Shown piece by piece: positions 40,060 to 64,000 of a DNA stretch of 64,000 nt. The position numbers and the translations under genes were made by a program. This DNA comes from Planctomycetota bacterium (GTDB taxonomy: Bacteria > Planctomycetota > JAJSAM01 > JAJVHW01): contig CBDFJG010000004.1 of the NCBI GenBank assembly GCA_965248445.1, positions 480,001-544,000 on the forward strand, in the 5' to 3' direction. Position 1 is the stretch's first letter. Each line of letters opens with the position of its first letter. A model generated the notes under the pieces. That model had not been told where the DNA came from. It made no database searches and saw nothing but the letters and a program-made list of their open reading frames with translations.

Positions 40060-41376
40060 ATGAACTCGACTCAGCCGTCCACCATCGAGCTCCTTGGCCG
40101 CGCGCGCGCGGGGGATGATCGTGCGTTCAGAGACCTCTTCGAGCGCCACGAGCCCGAACTGCGCCGGCGCTTCGAAGAAAGACCGGACGTCGCGGCTCGC
40201 GAGTTCAGCGCCCCCGATGACCTGATCCTCGAGACCTACCTCGTGGCCCTGAGGCGCGTGGAAGAGTTCCGGTCCCGGCGCGAGGACGCGTTCGGTCGTT
40301 GGCTCGCCTACATCGCGGACCTGCGGTTGGCGGAGTCGCTCCATCGCCCGGAGCTGGTCGGGCCGGCTCTCCAGGCGGCGCTCGCCGAGGAAGCGCGCGT
40401 CGCGGACGAAGCACGGCTTGCCGAAGAAGCACGCGCCGCCGAGCAAGCGCAACTCGCCGAGCAAGCGCAACTCGCCGAGCAAGCGCGGCTTGCCGAGGAA
40501 GAGCGGCTTGCCGAGGAAGAGCGCCTCGCCGAGGAAGAGCGCCTCGCCAAGGAAGCGCGCCTCGCCAAGGAAGCGCGCGTCGCCGAAGAAGCGCGCCTCG
40601 CCGAAGAAGCACGCCTCGCCGAGGAAGCGCGCCTCGCCAACGAAGCACGCCTCGCCGAGGAAGCACGCCTCGCCGAGGAAGCACGCCTCGCCGAGGAAGC
40701 GCGCATCGCCGAGGAAGCACGCCTCGCCGAGGAAGCGCGTCTCTCCGAGGAAGCGCGCCTCGCCAAGCAAGCGCACCTCGCCAAGGAAGCGCGCCTCGCC
40801 GAGGAAGCACGCCTCGCCGACGAAGCACGCCTCGCCGAGGAAGCGCGCATCGCCGAGCAAGCGCGCATCGCCGAGCAAGCGCGCCTCGCCGAGGAAGCGC
40901 GTCTCGCCAAGGGAGCGCGCCTCGCCGAGGAAGCGCGCCTCGCCGAGGAAGCGCGTCTCGCCGAGGTTGCACACCTCGCCGCGGAAATCACCCGCGCCAA
41001 GGAAGCGGCCCCCCCCGACGAAGAGGCGCTCTCGGCATCCTGGGAAGCGGCCATGCAAGTGCCCCTCCCGTGGGAGGGATCGCCGCCCGAGCAGGAGGGG
41101 TTCGTGACGGCGTGGCAAGCCGCCATGCACGTCCCGCTCCCTGGCGAGTCGCAGCCGCCGGAGCCGAAGGAGTTCGCTGCAGCGTGGCAGGCTGCGATGC
41201 AAGTGCCCCTGCCGTGGCAGCCGCCGTCCGACGAGGAAGCTGCCGACGCCGAGTTCGATCTCGACGAGATGACCGACGAGTTGATCGAGGAGTTGCTCGA
41301 CGAAGAGCCCGAGGGCCACGTCGCGGCCCGGGTCACCTCGGGCGATCAGTCCGGCCCGCACGGCAGCGACGCGTAG
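40060..41376 (+). CDS. ECF sigma region-2-like domain fused to (LAEEAR)33 helix and acidic tail
   Basis: ELLGRARAGDDRAFRDLFERH, DDLILETYL, AFGRWLAYIA; no region 4 is recognisable. Confidence 0.75.
   Translation: MNSTQPSTIELLGRARAGDDRAFRDLFERHEPELRRRFEERPDVAAREFSAPDDLILETYLVALRRVEEFRSRREDAFGRWLAYIADLRLAESLHRPELVGPALQAALAEEARVADEARLAEEARAAEQAQLAEQAQLAEQARLAEEERLAEEERLAEEERLAKEARLAKEARVAEEARLAEEARLAEEARLANEARLAEEARLAEEARLAEEARIAEEARLAEEARLSEEARLAKQAHLAKEARLAEEARLADEARLAEEARIAEQARIAEQARLAEEARLAKGARLAEEARLAEEARLAEVAHLAAEITRAKEAAPPDEEALSASWEAAMQVPLPWEGSPPEQEGFVTAWQAAMHVPLPGESQPPEPKEFAAAWQAAMQVPLPWQPPSDEEAADAEFDLDEMTDELIEELLDEEPEGHVAARVTSGDQSGPHGSDA
40381..40974 (+). repeat. Coding tandem repeat, 33 x 18 bp
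   Basis: Consensus CTCGCCGAGGAAGCGCGC (LAEEAR). Confidence 0.95.
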
Positions 41377-50442: not shown

Positions 50443-50720
50443 CGCGGAGCGATCGTCCCGAGACGTCCGGCTCGAGGACCCACTCCGAGGTGCTGTGCGC
50501 GGTCGGGGGGCACTTCAATCGTCCTCGTCGAGGCCTTCGATCGTCACCGTCTCTCCGCGTAGCCGCACGAGCAGGGAACGACCCGGCTCGAAGCGAAGAG
50601 TCACTTCGACGCTCGCCGCTCCGCCGTTGATTCGCACGGTCCGCTCTGTGGCCTCGGCCTGACGGGCGTCGCCGACTTCCATGGAATAACGGATGTGCCT
50701 CAGACTCCGGCCACACGTCG

Positions 50721-50763
50721 TCCGTCGCGTTCAGGCTGCGCCGCGCGTACCTCGCTCCGCAAG
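50721..50763 (+). repeat. 43-bp direct repeat shared with 61524-61566
   Basis: TCCGTCGCGTTCAGGCTGCGCCGCGCGT[A/G]CCTCGCTCCG[C/T]AAG, 41/43 identical. Confidence 0.9.
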
Positions 50764-55465: not shown

Positions 55466-55713
55466 AAGGCAAACATGAGGCACGCAACGCGAGACCGCGG
55501 TCTCATCATCGCGGCGCAACGACTGCCGTAAACCACCACCCCGACTGCATCTCCGGTTCGAGGTCGACCCCCAGCCCATCCGCGATTCTATTGATGTAGT
55601 TGGTGCGCCGCGAGCCACACTGCATCCAACACGATCCAACGCGCTCCAGCCTGGACCCCTCCGCAGCCGACTCCATGTGCGTTTCCTTAAGGCACACGTA
55701 GGGCACACACGGC
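55466..55713 (-). repeat. att-like site 1: arm + gene 3' fragment + arm
   Basis: Arm-like 55686-55713; NYINRIADGLGVDLEPEM coding segment 55548-55601; degenerate arm 55466-55486. Confidence 0.75.
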
Positions 55714-55886
55714 GTTAGCGCAGATAGGGCGTTGCGCGCCCCGCTCCGGAGCGTTCACTGAGTGCGCATGGCGTCGAATCGTACCGACGGTGACGAGCCT
55801 TGCGCACTCGGAGGTCTAGCCGTTGATCCGCGGCATCCGGGAGCGGATACTCGCGCTTGAGGTTTCCGTGCGAAAGGGGAATGCAC

Positions 55887-56978
55887 ATGACGATGCGAAC
55901 AACCGTGACCGCCGCCTTGGTGGTGCTTCTGACGGCACCGGCGCTGGCCGACACGATCCGCGTGCCGGGCGACCACGCCACGATTCAGGCGGCCGTGGAT
56001 GCCGCCGGCAACGGCGACGAGATCCAGATCAGGGGCGGCACGTACGCGGAGGCCATCGTCGTGATGGACACGGCCGACCTCACGATCATCGGCAAGCGCG
56101 GCGCGACCATCGAACCGCCTGGCAGCGACGAAGGGATCACCGCGCAGAACTGCGTCGGTCTCGTCATCAAGGGACTGCGGTTCGAGGGCGGAGGACGCGG
56201 GATCTTGGTGTCGGGGTGCGACAACGCGCGCATCGAGAAGTGCCGATCGAGCGACAACCAGAACGGGGGGTTCGAGATCCGAGCCTCGCAGAACGTGACC
56301 GTCACGAAGTGCAGGGTCGAGGGGGGCCAGGGCGAGGGAATCAAGTTCGGTGACGGCAACCCGGACCAACAGGTCACTGGCGGTGAGGTCTCGAAGTGCC
56401 GCGTGCGCGACGTCAGCGGGGATGGATTCCGCATCAATGCCAACGGTTCCACGATCTCGAAGTGCAGGTGCGACGGTGCCGAGAGCGGATTCGATGTCGA
56501 GGATGCGAGCCAGGGAGTCACGGTCGAGAAGTGCCGCTCGTTCGACGTGTCCGACGAGGCGTTCAAGACCAACGCCCCCGGGACCAACTTCGTCAAGTGC
56601 CTCGCGAAAGACGCCGACGAGGAGGGCTACGACGTCGAGGCCGACATGTGCGAAGTCGAGAAGTGCAAGGCGATCGACTGTCGCCGCGGAATAGAGTTCG
56701 AGGGAGTGACGAGCGGCATGGCCGCGAACTGCAAGCTGATCAAGTGCCGGGAGGTCGGCGTCGCCCTGTTCGGAGCAACCGGGGTCACGGTCGAGGGCTG
56801 CCTCTCGAAGAAGGCCGGTGACTTCGGGTTCCACGTGCGCGACGACTCGAACACCAACACCCTTACGAAGAACAAGGGCGTCAAGAACGGCGAGGCGGAT
56901 CTGCGAGACGAGAACGGCGAAGGATCGAACACGTACACGGACAACAAGTTCAAGGTCGAGGACTTCTCGAGTCCCTAA
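55887..56978 (+). CDS. Secreted right-handed parallel beta-helix protein
   Basis: Signal peptide; IRVPGDHATIQAAVDAA; periodic ..KC.. repeats. Confidence 0.88.
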   Translation: MTMRTTVTAALVVLLTAPALADTIRVPGDHATIQAAVDAAGNGDEIQIRGGTYAEAIVVMDTADLTIIGKRGATIEPPGSDEGITAQNCVGLVIKGLRFEGGGRGILVSGCDNARIEKCRSSDNQNGGFEIRASQNVTVTKCRVEGGQGEGIKFGDGNPDQQVTGGEVSKCRVRDVSGDGFRINANGSTISKCRCDGAESGFDVEDASQGVTVEKCRSFDVSDEAFKTNAPGTNFVKCLAKDADEEGYDVEADMCEVEKCKAIDCRRGIEFEGVTSGMAANCKLIKCREVGVALFGATGVTVEGCLSKKAGDFGFHVRDDSNTNTLTKNKGVKNGEADLRDENGEGSNTYTDNKFKVEDFSSP

Positions 56979-57054
56979 CAAGGGCGAGTGAGCTCCGGGC
57001 GCTCCTCCGGGTCGCTACTCAGCGCGGCTCGTCCCCCTCACGAGAGGAGCCTCC

Positions 57055-57296
57055 ATGCCCCGTTCCCACGGCAGACCTGCTGCGAACCGCCATCGGCGCG
57101 CGAGCAGCGCAACGACTGACCCGCAGGGACATCTCCTTGCGCGATCTCGGCCGCTGCAGCGTCGCGGAACTGACAAGCACGTACGGCCTCAGTGAGCGGG
57201 CCGCCGAGAGGGCAGTCGCCGTCTGCGAGCTCGCCCGCCGACACGCTCAGGAACCGCTTCGACGGGGAATGCCATTCCGGTCAAGCGGCGACGTCT
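57055..57296 (+). pseudogene. radC: RadC N-terminal fragment
   Basis: RBS and ATG, frameshift in a C run, then SLRDLGRCSVAEL...GLSERAAERAVAVCELARR...FRSSGDV; truncated before the JAB domain. Confidence 0.65.
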
Positions 57297-57318
57297 CCGG
57301 GCGGCCCGTCGAGACTAA

Positions 57319-57499
57319 CTACTGGTCCTGCAACATCTCCGGCTCGAGGTCGACGCCCAATCCGTCGGCGATGCGGTTGATGTAGTTGGTGCGCCCCGAG
57401 CCCCACTGCATCCCACACGACCCAACACCAGCGAGCCTGGCCCCCACTGGAGCCAACGCGAAGTGCGTTCTCTTAAGGCACACATAGGGCACACACGGC
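57319..57499 (-). repeat. att-like site 2: arm + gene 3' fragment
   Basis: 57334-57499 aligns without length difference to 55548-55713; arm at 57472-57499. Confidence 0.8.
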
Positions 57500-57635
57500 C
57501 GCGGCATCGACGCGGCGGATGGAGCAGGCCGCGACTCGCCCGGGGGACGGCCCACGTGCTTTGCGGCGGCGGGGTGACGCGGAGGGGCGGACGCGATTGG
57601 AGTGCGCCGCGCGGCGGCTGTCGGCGGGCGACGGG

Positions 57636-57727
57636 CGTACGGGGTCAGGACAAGGTCGGGAGCGTTCGTGGCGGTACCGCTCCGCACTCGGCGGTCCGAA
57701 CCCCCGAACTCTGTCCTGACTCCGTAC
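57636..57727. repeat. REPIN/MITE-like imperfect inverted repeat
   Basis: CGTACGGGGTCAGGACA...TGTCCTGACTCCGTACG, with an internal GCGGTACCGC palindrome. Confidence 0.65.
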
Positions 57728-58099
57728 GACCGGACCGCGCAACGGCTACATCTTGCCCCCGGGTCCTCGTCGACGTTCACGCACCTAACTCCCCCCCTCG
57801 TTGCCGCCTCCATCGAGACGCCTCATCTCTTGTTCTTGCCGCCCTTCCGGTTGCCGAAGTTGACGGCCGATGCCCATGGATGGCGTCAACGTCACCGTTG
57901 CGATCGACGGGATCGGCGAGGCCACGCCCGTCAACGTAGAGCTACGGCGCGCCGGTGTACCCTGGGCGCCGAAGGCCAACGCCGACACGGAAAGGGCAGC
58001 CTGATGCGGACGACTCAATCTTCAGAAGTCCGTATTCACACCGCCCGGAGGCGTTCTCGCGGCGGGATCGTACCCTCAGGGGGGGGATAGACTCCCCCC

Positions 58100-59224
58100 A
58101 TGAGTCAGCGTCCGCCCGCCCCCGAGTTCTCATCCGCCGGCGTGCTCGGGCTCGGGACGGCGTTGCCGGCGTTCCTGGTCGACCAGAGCGCGGCGGCGCG
58201 AGCCGTGGGGCGCCTGACAGGGCGACCGCGTCGTGTCGCCCGCACGTTCGCGCTGGCCGGCGTCGCCACCCGCTACGCCTGTGTCGCCGACTTCGACCCT
58301 GATCGGCCGGGGCCGCTCGCGCGCCTCCCGGCGCCCTCCACCGCCGAGCGCATGACGATCTTCGCGCGCGAAGCGCCCCTCCTCGCGGCTGTTGCCGCGC
58401 GGAGGGCCCTTGACTCCGCGGGACTGTCCGGCGACGCCATCGGGCACCTCGTCGTCGTCACCTGCACCGGCTTCTCCGCACCCGGCGTCGACCTCGCGCT
58501 GGTCGATGCGCTCGGGCTGCCGCCGGATGTGGACCGCACCGTGGTCGGATTCATGGGCTGCCACGGTGCGTTCAACGGGCTCCGCGCCGCGCGGGGTGCG
58601 GTAGCCGCCACAGGCCGCGCAGCCCTCGTCGTCTGCGTCGAGCTCGGAAGCCTGCACGTGCAGCCGGCATCGTCGCGCGAGGCGCTCGTGTCCGCGTCGT
58701 TGTTCGGCGACGGGGCGGCAGCGGTCGTCGTGGGAGCCGACGCCGGTCGCGGCGCCCTGCTGCGGCTGACGGGCGGAGCGAGCCACCTGGCCGAGGGCAC
58801 GCGCGACGCGATGTCCTGGTCGATCGGCCCGAACGGATTCGTCATGTCGCTCGCTCCCACGCTGCCGGCCGCCGTGGCGAGCGCCGTGCGTCTGCTCGCC
58901 GACCGGCTCGGTATCGACGGCGTCGATCCGGCCGGGCTCTGCGTGCACCCCGGCGGCCCAGCCGTCCTGGATCGCGTCGAGGATGCGCTCGGTCTGCAAC
59001 CCGGCGCGCTCGACGTGTCGCGCGACGCGCTGCGGGAGCACGGCAACCTCTCCAGCGCCACGATCCTGTTCGTGCTCGCCCGCGTGCTGCCGGAGCTCAC
59101 CGCAGGTGCCCCCGGGCTCCTTCTCGGCTTCGGTCCCGGGCTGACCGTCGAAGGGTTGGGATTCGTACGGGGCACGCGTCCGTTCGTCCACCGGCGCGTC
59201 GCGATCCCCGTTGCGATCGGATGA
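58100..59224 (+). CDS. Type III polyketide synthase
   Basis: TCTG, FMGCHG (Cys), LFGDGAAA, HPGG (His), GNLSS (Asn), FGPG. Confidence 0.95.
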   Translation: MSQRPPAPEFSSAGVLGLGTALPAFLVDQSAAARAVGRLTGRPRRVARTFALAGVATRYACVADFDPDRPGPLARLPAPSTAERMTIFAREAPLLAAVAARRALDSAGLSGDAIGHLVVVTCTGFSAPGVDLALVDALGLPPDVDRTVVGFMGCHGAFNGLRAARGAVAATGRAALVVCVELGSLHVQPASSREALVSASLFGDGAAAVVVGADAGRGALLRLTGGASHLAEGTRDAMSWSIGPNGFVMSLAPTLPAAVASAVRLLADRLGIDGVDPAGLCVHPGGPAVLDRVEDALGLQPGALDVSRDALREHGNLSSATILFVLARVLPELTAGAPGLLLGFGPGLTVEGLGFVRGTRPFVHRRVAIPVAIG

Positions 59225-59949
59225 TCGCGCGCCTGCTGCCGCCCCCGCTCGCTACGCGAAGCGCGGGGCCCGAGCTCATGGACGACCTCGACGGCATCGG
59301 GGGCGCGGAACTCGCGGTTACCCTCCGCGAGCTGGAGCAGATCAACCGCTGGCTCGGCGGGCACGGCACCACGCGCCGCGCGCTCGATCTCCTTGCCGCG
59401 CGCGTGGACCTCGACACACGACGCCCTCTCCGCGCACTCGACGTCGGTGGCGGGTCGGGCGACGCGGTTCCCGTGATCATCGACTGGGCTACTCGACGGG
59501 GTCTCTCGCTCGAGGTCGTCACCGTCGACCTGCATCCGGAGACGACGCGTGCCGCCGCGGAGAGACTTGCCAACGTCGCCGTGGCGCGGGCCATCTGCGG
59601 CGACGCGTTCGCGTACGAAGACGCCTCATTCGACATTGTGCATGCTTCCCTGTTCCTGCACCACTTCGACGGCGACGACGCGGCACGCGCACTCTCGGAG
59701 ATGCGCCGCATCGCGCGACTCGGCGTCGTCCTGAACGACCTGCGGCGCGAGGCGCTTCCGTGGCTGCTGGTGCGGGCGCTCACGGCGGGCTTCTCGCAGA
59801 ACCGGCTCATCCGCGCGGATGCGCCGCACTCCGTCGCGCGCGGATTCCGTCGCGCGGACTGGGACGCCCTCGGCCCCGCCGCGGGGCTCGAGTTGACGCT
59901 GCAACGGACGTGGGCGTTCCGCTGGGCAATCGCGGGTGTGTGCACATGA
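59221..59949 (+). CDS. SAM-dependent methyltransferase
   Basis: ELMDD, INRWLGG, LDVGGGSGD, SLFLHHF, NDLRR. Confidence 0.9.
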   Translation: MIARLLPPPLATRSAGPELMDDLDGIGGAELAVTLRELEQINRWLGGHGTTRRALDLLAARVDLDTRRPLRALDVGGGSGDAVPVIIDWATRRGLSLEVVTVDLHPETTRAAAERLANVAVARAICGDAFAYEDASFDIVHASLFLHHFDGDDAARALSEMRRIARLGVVLNDLRREALPWLLVRALTAGFSQNRLIRADAPHSVARGFRRADWDALGPAAGLELTLQRTWAFRWAIAGVCT

Positions 59950-61115
59950 GCACGCAGCGGGCTCCACGCGTGGTCGTGATCGGCGGCGGGCCGGGCGGCT
60001 TGTCGGCGGCGACGACACTCGCGCGCGGCGGCGCGGACGTCACGGTCCTTGAGGCCGGGAACTTCCCGCGACACCGCGTGTGCGGTGAGTTCCTCTCTCC
60101 CGAAGCGCTTCCGCTGCTACGCGATCTCGGCGTCGCCGCAGATGTCCTCGCACCCGCGCCGGTGCTGTCGCATGTGCGAGTGTCCGTCGCGCGCGACGGA
60201 CGAGAGAGCGCACGTCTCGAGGCGGCGCTCCCGGTCGCCGGACGTGGCGTGTCGCGACACGAGCTCGACGCCGCGCTCGCGGCCGCGGCGCGACGCGCGG
60301 GTGCTGTGGTGCGCGAAGGCTCGCGCGTCCACGCGATCGAGGCGGTGGGCCCGTTGCTCCACGTGCACGCCGCACGAGGTGACATCGAGGCCGAGGCCGC
60401 GGTGCTCGCGACAGGGAGGCTCCGACGCCCCCCGGGCGCGCGCACACCCCGTAACGCGAACGCGCTCCGTCACCTGGGCGTGAAGGTCCACGTGCGGGGA
60501 CTCGCGCTCGGCGACGGGACGCAGCTGCACTTCGTGGAGGGAGCCTACGTGGGCCTGAACGACGTCGTCTCCGGCGGAGAGCGGTTGACGAACGTGTGCG
60601 CACTCTTGACGCACCGCGCCCTCGCGGAAGCGCCGCGCGACCCGCTCGCGGTGCTTGAGTGGCTGGCGGCAGCGAGCCCGGGCTTCGCACGCCACTGGCG
60701 CGCGGCGCGCGTGGACGCAACGACTCTTGCCACGGCCGCACACTTCGGATTCGACGCACGCGGAGCGGTCTCGCGGATCGGCGACGCGCCCGTCGTCGCG
60801 GTCGGTGACGCCGCCGTCGCCGTCACGCCGTTGATCGGCGACGGGCAGGCCGCCGCGCTGGCCAACGGACGCGACGCGGCGCAGGCGCTGTTGGCCGGCA
60901 CGGAAGAGGCTCCGACCGTCGCCTACCGCCGTCGTCATGCGCTCTCCATGGGTCTGCGGCTGCGGGCCGGGCGCGCGCTCCAGAGCGTTCTGGTGCGACC
61001 CCGGGCTGCCGGCCTGCTGGTCGGGACCGCAGCGCGCCTGACACCGTTGGTGCGGTCGCTCTTCGTGGTGACGCGCGGACCGCTTCCGCTCCCCGTAGCT
61101 CCAAACGCTCGGTAG
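59946..61115 (+). CDS. FAD-dependent oxidoreductase
   Basis: VIGGGPGG, FPRHRVCGEFLS, ATGR, VGDAA...PLIGDG. Confidence 0.9.
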   Translation: MSTQRAPRVVVIGGGPGGLSAATTLARGGADVTVLEAGNFPRHRVCGEFLSPEALPLLRDLGVAADVLAPAPVLSHVRVSVARDGRESARLEAALPVAGRGVSRHELDAALAAAARRAGAVVREGSRVHAIEAVGPLLHVHAARGDIEAEAAVLATGRLRRPPGARTPRNANALRHLGVKVHVRGLALGDGTQLHFVEGAYVGLNDVVSGGERLTNVCALLTHRALAEAPRDPLAVLEWLAAASPGFARHWRAARVDATTLATAAHFGFDARGAVSRIGDAPVVAVGDAAVAVTPLIGDGQAAALANGRDAAQALLAGTEEAPTVAYRRRHALSMGLRLRAGRALQSVLVRPRAAGLLVGTAARLTPLVRSLFVVTRGPLPLPVAPNAR

Positions 61116-61233
61116 TACCCCTGGCCGCGCGGCGTCCCTGGCAGCCGGACGACACACACCGCGTCGGCGGCATTCGGGCGTTGTGCTGCGTTCGCGAGCC
61201 TCGCTACGGTGCGTCCGAGAGAGGTACACGCAC

Positions 61234-61443
61234 ATGAGCGATCAGCCGGACGAGCACACAGAGGACCCCGCCGGCGACGACGCGCCCACGAGCCCGCCGC
61301 ACCGCCACGAGGCCGAGACGGTCATGGGGTCGATCCGCGCGCTGCATGGCGCGGACGCCGGGATGCGGATCGATCTCGAGGGCGCGGACGAAGCCGGCGT
61401 CAGTCCGCAGCGCGAGGCGCCGACAGGCGAGCGCTATGCCTAG
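61234..61443 (+). CDS. Short acidic ORF, possibly a truncated gene
   Basis: GAGG RBS; ends GERYA* about 80 bp before the repeat. Confidence 0.35.
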   Translation: MSDQPDEHTEDPAGDDAPTSPPHRHEAETVMGSIRALHGADAGMRIDLEGADEAGVSPQREAPTGERYA

Positions 61444-61523
61444 GAAGCGACTCTCCTGCACGGCGAACGCAACCTGCCCACCGTTCTGCGCGACTCCTGA
61501 ACGACAGAGTTCGCCGTACATCA

Positions 61524-61699
61524 TCCGTCGCGTTCAGGCTGCGCCGCGCGTGCCTCGCTCCGTAAGGCACACATAGGGCACACAAGACGGGTCTCGAGTC
61601 GCACTGCCCGGAGCCGGCCGAGGACGTAACTCGTTACTCCGCCTTCATCTCCGGCTCGAGGTCGACTCCGAGTCCGTCCGCTATTCTGTTAATGTACTC
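61524..61699 (-). repeat. att-like site 3: gene 3' fragment + arm
   Basis: YINRIADGLGVDLEPEMKAE* at 61634-61696; arm at 61564-61584. Confidence 0.8.
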
Positions 61700-61791
61700 C
61701 GCTCCCGAGATGATGGCCCTCCTCGGCGTGCGCGACTTCGTGGCTGGACAAGGTCATGAATCTCGATCGCTTCGACCTTGCCTGATCCAGG

Positions 61792-62322
61792 CTACTCCGC
61801 GAGCGCGGCGAGGATCGCCTTGAGGAAGTTCGGCAGATCGTCCGGGACGCGCGCCGTGATGATCGGCCCGTCCACGGTGCACGACTGATCCGGCACGTAG
61901 ATGCCGCCCGCGTTGATCACGTCGTCCTTGACCGCGAAGTAACACCCGACGCGTCGACCGCGGATGCTCTCGGGCACGCTGCACAGCATCCACGGGCCGT
62001 GGCAGATCGCCGCGAGCACGCGGCCGGCCGCGTGCGCGTCGCGGACGAGCTGGATCATCTCCGGGCAACGGCGCATGTGGTCGGGCGCGTAGCCGCCCGG
62101 GATGACCACACAGTCGTAGTCCGCCCCGCTCACCTCCGCGGCCGCGTGCGTGCTCTTGGCCGGGTAGCCCTTCTTGCTCTCGTATGTCTCGCCGACCGCA
62201 GGGCCGACCACGTGCACCTCCGCACCCGCTTCGATGAGGCGTAGGCGCGGGTAGTGGAGCTCCAGGTCCTCGTAGAACCTCTCGACGAGGATGGCGACCT
62301 TCTTGCCCTCGAGATTGCTCAT
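61792..62322 (-). CDS. PfpI/DJ-1 family protein
   Basis: YEDLELHYP, IPGGYAPD, AICHGPW, ARVPDDLP. Confidence 0.93.
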   Translation of the reverse strand: MSNLEGKKVAILVERFYEDLELHYPRLRLIEAGAEVHVVGPAVGETYESKKGYPAKSTHAAAEVSGADYDCVVIPGGYAPDHMRRCPEMIQLVRDAHAAGRVLAAICHGPWMLCSVPESIRGRRVGCYFAVKDDVINAGGIYVPDQSCTVDGPIITARVPDDLPNFLKAILAALAE

Positions 62323-62390
62323 GGGGCCGTCACGGTACCGCAGACCCGGCGCGGTCTGCGTCGCTATCCTGCGTGCGCGGGAGGTGAGCG

Positions 62391-62746
62391 GTGTCGATCC
62401 AGAGCGTGAGTGCCGTGACCTTCGCGGTGTCCGACATGGCGCGCTCGGTGCGCTTCTACGGCAGGCTCGGCCTGACGTTGGCCTACGGAGGAGAACAGGC
62501 GTCCTTCACCAGCTTCCACGCAGGCGAATCGTTCGTGAATCTCATCGAGGCGAAGGATTACGAGGGACGCTGGTGGGGACGGACCATCTTCCGGGTCGAC
62601 GACGCGGATGCGCACTACCGGTTGCAGCTCGAAGCCGGTCTGCGCCCAGACGCGCCCCGCGACGCCCCCTGGGGCGACGCTACTTTCACATCAGCGACCC
62701 CGACGGCCACGAGCTCAGCTTCGCCGAACTGCTGCCCCGCGGCTGA
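62391..62746 (+). pseudogene. VOC/glyoxalase protein with a frameshift near 62676
   Basis: VSDMARSVRFY...PRDAPWG continues as RYFHISDPDGHELSFA in another frame. Confidence 0.8.
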
Positions 62747-62811
62747 CGCGCGCATGGGCAACGAGCCGGGTTCATGCACGAACGCCGCGCTGCGAGCACC
62801 ATACTCGTGGC

Positions 62812-63450
62812 ATGCCGGCCCACTCGGAACGGGAGCTCGCGGCGGTGCAGGCCGCGCTCCAGCGCTGGGACATGCTGCTCGTGACCGATCGGCAGCTGCC
62901 CGCGGTGACGACGATCGTGGCCGGAGAACCCGTGCGCGGCTCGTGGTGGGGTCACGCCAAGGGTCACGCGATCTACGACCTCCTGCGCGTGCTGTACGAC
63001 GATCCGGACGTATTCCCGGTGAAGCTCGTGCACGGCAAGATCACCCTCGTGCGGCGGCCGCTGTTCGCCGCGCTCCGGGCAGTCGCCGAGGCGGACGACC
63101 CCTGGCAGACTGACGGGCTCTCACCGCTCGCACTCTGGATGCGTGACGCGGTCGCGCGGGAAGGGCGCGTTCGCGTCGACGCGCTCTCCCCACCGGCGCG
63201 GCTCGAGGGCGACACGAAGAAGGCCGCGCGGGAACTCGAGCAGCGTCTCCTCGTCGCCGCCGGACAGATCCACACGGAGTCGGGCCACCACGTGCGCGTG
63301 CTCGAGCCGCTCGCCGACGCGTTCGATCGCGCCGGTGCACCGCGCGGGGCAATGACGCCGCAGCAGGGGCGCCTGCGCTCCGTGGGCGCAGAGTGGGCGA
63401 TCGAGACAGGCGCGGCCACCCGCTTCCCCTGGATGAGCCGACGAGCCTGA
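62812..63450 (+). CDS. Hypothetical protein (possibly AlkZ-like winged helix)
   Basis: GSWWGH, KLVHGKITLV, ELEQRLLV, HTESGHH. Confidence 0.55.
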   Translation: MPAHSERELAAVQAALQRWDMLLVTDRQLPAVTTIVAGEPVRGSWWGHAKGHAIYDLLRVLYDDPDVFPVKLVHGKITLVRRPLFAALRAVAEADDPWQTDGLSPLALWMRDAVAREGRVRVDALSPPARLEGDTKKAARELEQRLLVAAGQIHTESGHHVRVLEPLADAFDRAGAPRGAMTPQQGRLRSVGAEWAIETGAATRFPWMSRRA

Positions 63451-63495
63451 CCGACCAACGGCGGACGTTGTGGGCGTTGGGCCATGACCCGGAGA

Positions 63496-63999
63496 CTACA
63501 CCTCTCGGCGCCGGTAGATGATCCGAGCCGTGCGACCGAACGTGACGTAGTTCCATGCCCATTGGAAGAGCACCAGGACGCGGTTGGAGAAGGTGACCAG
63601 CCAGATCAGGTGGACGAAGAGCCAGGCGAGCCATGCGGGAAAGCCGCGTAGACGGATCCACCTCAGGTCGGCGACGCCAGCCATGCGACCGATCGCGGCC
63701 ATGTCGCCCAGGTCGCGGTACCGGAAGCTCGGTGCTGGCAGGGCGCGCAGGCGCCTGCGCATCACACGCGCCGCGTGTCTCCCCTGCTGGATCGCGACGG
63801 GCGCCACTCCCGGGAGAGGTGTTCCGTCTGCACCGACGCAGCGCGCCAGGTCTCCGAGTACGAACACCTCGGGGTGACTCGCGAGCGTCAGATCGGGCTC
63901 GACGGGGACACGGCCGAGTGGATCGACGTCAGCGCCTGCTGCGGCAGCGAGGGCGGCCCCGAGCGGCGACGCGCAGACGCCCGCGGCCCAGAGAACGGT
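63496..63999 (-). CDS. ndh: Type II NADH dehydrogenase family protein (5'-partial)
   Basis: VLWAAGV, VFVLGDLA, PGVAPVAIQQG, FRYRDLGDMAAIGR, AWLAWLFVHL. Confidence 0.88.
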   Translation of the reverse strand, partial: TVLWAAGVCASPLGAALAAAAGADVDPLGRVPVEPDLTLASHPEVFVLGDLARCVGADGTPLPGVAPVAIQQGRHAARVMRRRLRALPAPSFRYRDLGDMAAIGRMAGVADLRWIRLRGFPAWLAWLFVHLIWLVTFSNRVLVLFQWAWNYVTFGRTARIIYRRREV

Positions 64000-64000
64000 G

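Follow-up and report, generated by a model that had tools for sequence, protein, structure and literature searches.

Cis-mobilizable elements (CIMEs) and tandem accretion, for which the original work on S. thermophilus is cited as Pavlovic 2004 and Bellanger 2011, are defined in PMC5704250, and tandem islands at the ssrA gene of Dehalococcoides are described in PMC3146451. The locus considered below invites comparison with both. It lies in a 64,000-nt stretch of Planctomycetota DNA (the window, G000:C4:480001-544000; positions above 64000 extend the window numbering along contig C4), where a 4.3-kb segment holding a triad of genes, for a type III polyketide synthase (PKS), a methyltransferase (MT) and a flavin adenine dinucleotide (FAD)-dependent oxidoreductase, is bounded by copies of the 3' end of an AhpD-like selenoprotein gene. 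(G000 is the genome under study, 92% complete; G001-G007 are the family relatives with which it was compared.) A decayed CIME-like unit, sitting in a hotspot of tandem accretion, probably explains this anatomy, and the 4.3-kb stretch itself is best read, from its sequence, as a fusion of two decayed units and not as a single clean element.

The target gene lies 7 kb past the PKS unit (C4:548567-549154, or 68567-69154 in extended numbering, minus strand). It scores 118.3 bits against TIGR01926 (cut-off 81.8), and one in-frame TGA, in a CxxU motif, is found in 29 of the 30 loci returned, the G000 gene counted in. A hairpin follows the UGA of the target gene, and the genome encodes a selenocysteine tRNA (tRNA-Sec). 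The gene fits the family of AhpD-like CxxU selenoproteins treated in PMC1088965, and selenocysteine would presumably be inserted at the UGA. Its likeness to that family is the TIGR01926 score above cut-off together with the CxxU motif; the difference is that its 3' end would serve here as an integration site. Such a role was not found in the literature, although the TIGER, Islander or ProBord tables may list the target; it does not appear in one supplementary file of PMC12884075, and AhpD is absent from the main-text passages of PMC13626063, supplements excluded.

The attachment (att) cores of the array are 54-nt copies of this gene end. G000 has five of them, all on one strand within 13 kb (starts 55548, 57334, 61646, 65656 and 68579), in tandem downstream of, and including, the one gene end; the last two lie outside the window, and that at 68579 (C4:548579-548632) is the true gene end. 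On the minus strand each core encodes (N)YINRIADGLG(V/G)DLEPEM, the one at 57334 giving the C-terminus NYINRIADGLGVDLEPEM. Pairwise, the five show 74 differences in synonymous codons against 4 non-synonymous (a single change counted four times, the pairs being non-independent), and among nine sites with a P segment (the stretch before the core, P' being the stretch after it) core differences at codon positions 1, 2 and 3 number 62, 24 and 214, which indicates coding constraint. The boundary between gene and P segment is sharp and falls at the same base in all genomes. At this boundary four of the five G000 cores share CAACTACAT, and AACTACAT is read at 20 of the 23 sites listed, the exceptions being 61646, one decayed G005 site and the G004 gene. 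Since the four cores have CAACTACAT in common and position 10 is already variable, the crossover would fall within these 9 nt.

Arm sites at a fixed spacing from a core are what an attP bringing a replacement gene end shows, as in integrase islands. Here the arm repeat is TGTGCC-n5-TGTGCC, and both arms of the PKS unit lie inside the cores as direct repeats on the same strand. The P arm stands 107 nt before the core in 3/3 P ends of G000, and the P' arm 116 nt after it in all three type-1 P' ends. In the window the 21-nt arm motif has three matches at no more than 3 mismatches, against 0.00 expected (100 shuffles); genome-wide, six matches at up to 5 mismatches fall inside the array, and four of 5 mismatches are scattered elsewhere. 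(Arm-like motifs at C2:696570 and C3:489261 stand without a core.) A second arm type, with CATGGCTA repeats, occurs at the same target-gene boundary in G002 (C73 and C174), G003 (C36) and G004 (C4).

Could the repeats have arisen by chance or by local duplication of genes, or might they be small peptide genes? The P segment and core are open in all nine sites compared, as for a peptide gene. However, chance predicts no matches, the boundary never shifts, and differences in the 108-nt P segment, which stays in register, are spread evenly over codon positions (371/412/397), as in non-coding DNA; the peptide gene was rejected on this count. The comparison covered 9 of the 14 P-type sites listed, from five genomes and one metagenome contig, leaving out G006_R2 and G005_C15b (shortened P segments), G005_C15a (decayed), and G003_R1 and G002_C174 (second arm type). 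This explanation is already refuted and retains next to no probability.

The PKS unit and its borders consist of the following features:

57054..57313, plus strand: probable but weak radC 5' remnant, truncated at the att site (NF000642, below cut-off at E=0.004)
57316..57333, minus strand: P'-end stub of the next unit, ending before the arm; it resembles both the L089 site and the tail behind the G005 gene
57334..57387, minus strand: right-end att core, 54 nt, CAACTACAT block intact by core comparison
57388..57495, minus strand: P segment, 108 nt, arm repeat at 57477-57494, 107 nt before the core
58100..59224, plus strand: type III PKS with Cys-His-Asn motifs (PF00195/PF02797)
59221..59949, plus strand: class I S-adenosylmethionine methyltransferase (PF08241; PRK06202-like, below cut-off)
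59946..61115, plus strand: FAD-dependent oxidoreductase (PF01494)
61149..61233, plus strand: second P arm, decayed and present as its distal half, with the kinase leader, at the start of an 82% nucleotide match to G006
61234..61443, plus strand: 69-codon stub of a Ser/Thr kinase-WD40 cargo gene, whole (1249 aa) in a G006 unit
61566..61645, minus strand: P' segment with the replacement stop codon, then the arm (61566-61583), 116 nt after the core start
61646-61696, minus strand: att core damaged at its 5' end, without a P arm in front; GGAGTACAT against CAACTACAT in the other four
61697..61790, plus strand: 3' remnant joined to the core, internally deleted and 83% identical to C2:257590-257660; from its translation, presumably katG-like (catalase-peroxidase)

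On the minus strand the order is therefore core (61646-61696), arm (61566-61583), cargo, arm (57477-57494), core (57334-57387). This is the order described in the first-pass annotation of the window, and the coordinates and the three arm matches bear it out; Pfam matches uphold the cargo that it named, and it was right that the unit lacks a recombinase, since none of the 22 PF00589 matches and one PF07508 match in the genome is in or near the PKS unit or the array. The attL-cargo-attR geometry that it saw holds for the core and arm sites, which are of the att type, and is not supported for a single intact element, the left core being damaged and the whole looking like a two-unit fusion. That the cores are gene-end copies, that there are five, the 5' damage at 61646 and the internal half arm with its kinase stub all go beyond that annotation. 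One 6196-nt short-read contig spans 55580-61775 with 0 differences (two of four runs, from one sample that is possibly the assembly source; run X5, share 0.07, gave short pieces only), and this stretch is no assembly artefact.

The sign of fusion is internal. Over 61149-61401 the sequence matches the beginning of a G006 unit at 82% identity, covering the outer half of that unit's P arm, its leader and the initial kinase-WD40 codons. With one and a half P arms in 4.3 kb, the stretch most plausibly consists of two units that a deletion has fused. Because the left core is damaged, the unit should excise poorly alone; with GGAGTACAT in place of CAACTACAT it appears to lack a second recombination-competent site, and the 4.3-kb piece is probably immobile on its own. 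Among 15 of the 62 joints listed, from assembled contigs (which drop rare variants), none joins 57387 to 61696, a result that counts neither for nor against excision. (A joint of 55568 to 57365 was read as another target-gene copy and not as excision, with 10 foreign letters and a 22-nt side.) Both att ends are, on the other hand, retained (less clearly so for the 4.3 kb alone) in the composite that starts at the next junction or at the gene end itself and stops at 57387, whose right end is intact, and it is possible that an incoming cognate integrase could excise the triad within it, from 68632 or 65709 to 57387 (11.2 or 8.3 kb).

The first-pass annotation had called the cluster mobilisable in trans, that is, an intact non-autonomous 4.3-kb element excised and moved by an integrase encoded elsewhere. 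Both arms are indeed perfect and canonically spaced, the three cargo genes are open, and G000 encodes four integrases of the same broad clade as the candidate cognate enzyme, 32-36% identical to it. However, the left core departs from the conserved block in any 7-nt window and is fused to the katG remnant; the half arm and kinase stub lie inside the supposed element; no close cognate integrase was found in the 92%-complete genome (best match 36%); and the best PKS homologues among 8000 candidates scored are only 55-61% identical, which gives no sign of recent spread. Such an element is improbable, and the claim is not supported.

Where did the triad come from? The PKS is single-copy in G000 and has homologues at 52-57% identity in five of the seven relatives, all of which carry the MT and oxidoreductase too, in the G000 order of PKS-MT-oxidoreductase; none was found in G003 or G005. 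In G001 and G006 the triad lies between a HEAT gene or gpsA and a sulfatase-ECF (extracytoplasmic function) sigma pair, and in G004 and G007, where it is at contig ends, the same neighbours occur on the side reached; the relatives' triad loci have no cores or arms. The ancestral locus in G000 (C3:1.328-1.333 Mb) has gpsA, HEAT and sigma genes together and no triad. Vertical inheritance at the AhpD-like locus in relatives without flanking repeats was what the first-pass annotation expected to see if the cluster were not mobile. In the DNA fetched, the triad is downstream of the target gene in 0/7 relatives and is thus non-native there, while four relatives do have a repeat-free triad at another locus. 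In the PKS tree G000 nests with G001, G006 and G007 (support 91/93) on a longer branch, but with this long branch and moderate support the trees cannot separate relocation from re-acquisition (they are without G005 and G003, and the concatenated tree holds 8 of the 14 PKS rows). Composition is uninformative on origin: triad GC is 72-74% against 69% for the genome, codon scores are in the 2nd-17th percentile, and ancestral-locus orthologues vary as much. The G002 copy (C31) is located elsewhere; its PKS and MT share 70-74% identity with those of a different family of the same taxonomic order, and the copy groups with that family (70-72%), which suggests a separate transfer. The triad is a family-resident operon that was relocated or re-acquired from a relative, and it may at some stage have been element-borne. 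Between the P segment and the PKS, the 600 nt at 57500-58100 have only short genomic matches, none in the compared loci, among the matches listed. (This non-coding stretch includes an unexplained inverted repeat at 57632-57732, with arms of 29-30 nt, 87% identical.)

It could be that the triad never travelled in an element, and that illegitimate or insertion sequence (IS)-driven rearrangement moved it into the decayed array, inside a P end; only the route of the triad distinguishes this from the CIME-like reading. The single PKS copy, the empty ancestral locus and the family-level phylogeny all suit such a move, and G000 has 72 near-identical matches to one IS end. However, none of these is in the array (the nearest is at C4:594161), and a complete P arm and core lie beyond the triad in addition to the half arm, for which two units are the simpler explanation. 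The G005 ancestral locus (sulfatase and sigma, with a neighbouring open reading frame common to G005 and G000) also lacks the triad, so that its loss may predate re-acquisition, and the grouping of the G002 copy with another family indicates that the triad does move between lineages. Rearrangement is rather unlikely.

The product of the triad, which the first-pass annotation took as established, would be of the alkylresorcinol or alkylpyrone type by analogy. PMC10896814 reports alkylresorcinols made by planctomycete type III PKSs, from an operon that, like cyanobacterial hidABC, unites the same PKS, MT and FAD oxidoreductase. Its order is MT-oxidoreductase-PKS, against PKS-MT-oxidoreductase here, so that the product here can only be presumed. 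The three-gene set accompanies 58 of the 96 PKS genes in that study, with neighbours kept only among close relatives, and the word "mobile" is absent from its main text.

The hotspot extends through the family. Extra cores occur in six of the seven relatives, G001, G003, G004, G005, G006 and G002 (on a separate contig), and none in G007; long P-segment matches are confined to the same family among 401 genomes (two candidates scored per genome). The arm-plus-core pattern gave five matches in metagenome contigs, one of them a true site (L089), seven in genome contigs, two of them true (Planctomycetota records), and none in viral contigs. Most units span 2-10 kb, and their cargo is diverse and of the island type, toxin-antitoxin pairs among it: HigBA, HicAB, ParE, TOTE, Schlafen/RecG, NAD-related genes and kinases.

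No intact integrase was found in any array unit examined across seven genomes, and a profile built from the 22 integrases of G000 (all 22 recovered as control) has no match in the array loci. In one G004 unit lies the 5' piece of a tyrosine integrase, truncated and frameshifted, which is 64-81% identical to nine proteins (313-396 aa), seven of them with PF00589. The candidate cognate integrase, P0002, is one of these nine; it has no match in viral loci, and across the 401 genomes (four candidates scored per genome) nothing exceeds 38% except the G004 remnant. Integrases of the same clade (33-38%) stand directly after rho in G005 (C97, L148:8023-14800) and G004 (C434, L147:7150-13618), each with the integrase right after the gene and a gene-end copy at the far side. 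The G005 element is complete, running from the rho end through a TGTGCC arm, integrase, HTH_17 gene, cargo and TGTGCC-n5-TGTGCC arm to the rho-end copy. Its arms being of the same type, it supports the view that the TGTGCC motifs serve this clade as arm sites. The enzyme acting at the AhpD-like site is not proved by this, P0002 being a candidate. (G000 has a second small tandem array at C3:252186-257600, L140, with three similar rho-like gene-end copies and two TGTGCC arms, adjoined by an intact integrase and HTH_17 gene; the rho genes lie elsewhere, at C4:1441650-1442726 and C3:1256846.)

Units without integrases might, on the other hand, be the normal circulating form, shuffled like integron cassettes by a stand-alone chromosomal recombinase. 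The lack of an intact integrase in seven genomes, the small size of the units and the conservation of their ends across genera would agree with this, as would core copies carrying their own host's amino-acid variant in each genome. But arm sites and gene-end replacement are features of phage integrases, one unit has an integrase remnant, the related rho elements are autonomous, and many ends are deleted or degenerate; a kinase unit shared between two genomes is 76% identical, barely above their core-gene identity of 67-74%, and may therefore be inherited. An integron would show an adjacent IntI integrase and attC hairpin sites; no integrase lies near the array, and its sites, to which no attC model was applied, are gene-end cores with arm repeats. 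Little probability attaches to this scheme. The core copies in G000-G006 mostly carry the host's own residues (IADG, VADC, IADC, VADA) and differ synonymously, often towards AT-rich codons, which points to gene conversion or to selection for an intact replacement end. A bolder proposal, that throughout the family selection keeps small integrase-less units at the selenoprotein gene end recombination-ready, and that a trans-acting tyrosine integrase shuffles them so that they capture and make transferable whole chromosomal operons, here the PKS triad, is improbable.

How, then, would the CIME-like structure have arisen? In this family the 3' end of the AhpD-like gene is a hotspot of integration (attB). 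Elements with a tyrosine integrase would insert at or close to CAACTACAT, each bringing a new 3' end that restores the AhpD-like protein. Repeated entry would stack units in tandem, and deletions, later in this inferred order of events, would remove integrases and some ends, so that CIME-like remnants are left. Two of these would be joined in the 4.3-kb stretch, which links the P' end and kinase stub of one unit to the PKS triad and P end of another, the triad coming from the family's own gene pool after leaving, or being lost from, its ancestral locus. Several points weigh against this account. Without an intact integrase in the units examined, the autonomous parent at the AhpD-like target is unobserved, and what links the G004 remnant to that site is its position. 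The crossover is placed by sequence invariance, and the two-unit fusion by one 259-nt match, in which the arm part is degenerate as well as short. In none of the relatives is the triad enclosed in an att unit, so that it is at most putative element cargo.

The rest of the array, which to judge from its sequence is decaying, is made up as follows:

55548..55708, minus strand: next junction, P arm 55691-55708 and core 55548-55601, followed by a degenerate P' arm, 55468-55485
55881..56978, plus strand: right-handed beta-helix protein, cargo of the neighbouring unit
61792..64000: neighbouring unit with PfpI, glyoxalase-like, unknown and NDH-2-like genes, continuing past the window end to a HicA pair
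C4:545656-545816: junction beyond the window, P arm and core
C4:545908-548169: kinase-PEGA-FGE-sulfatase unit
C4:548499-548516: P' arm beyond the window

The P' end of the neighbouring unit at the right end breaks off after 18 nt, before its arm, and runs into the weak radC-like remnant. Decay from an autonomous element would have left the radC-like and kinase stubs in G000 and the integrase remnant in G004. No transfer genes appear in the gene list or Pfam matches of the array, no separate search for relaxase families having been made. The sequence that adjoins the P' arm on its inner side (61518-61566) recurs at 50715-50763 with 92% identity, without arm or core; the recurrence is probably a further unit-end remnant, and the array may reach to about 50.7 kb. 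(Further off, a long 18-nt tandem repeat at 40256-41100 lies within a 438-aa open reading frame, 40060-41376, with a sigma-70 region 2-like N-terminus.)

The locus places a hotspot of integration in a little-studied family of Planctomycetota, with a protein-coding selenoprotein target and sharply defined core and arm sites. The candidate integrase clade, which also uses rho 3' ends, offers a testable integrase/att pair, and the array is a snapshot of one route by which a patchily distributed planctomycete PKS operon can end up in mobile DNA. As in the CIMEs of PMC5704250, units without integrases that have kept att sites follow one another at a single target gene's 3' end, and the junctions between them are chimeric. 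Here, the host group and target gene are new, no adjacent integrative and conjugative element or transfer module is seen, the left site of the PKS unit is damaged and the unit looks chimeric. The Dehalococcoides islands of PMC3146451 likewise show many gene-end repeats downstream of one gene, with metabolic cargo and some islands lacking the integration module. There, the target is a tmRNA gene, the enzyme a serine recombinase, and the module is kept in 16 islands, whereas here the target is protein-coding, the sites include arms and no module is intact. The class of mechanism, tandem accretion followed by decay, is thus already known; the host group and the target gene are new to it.

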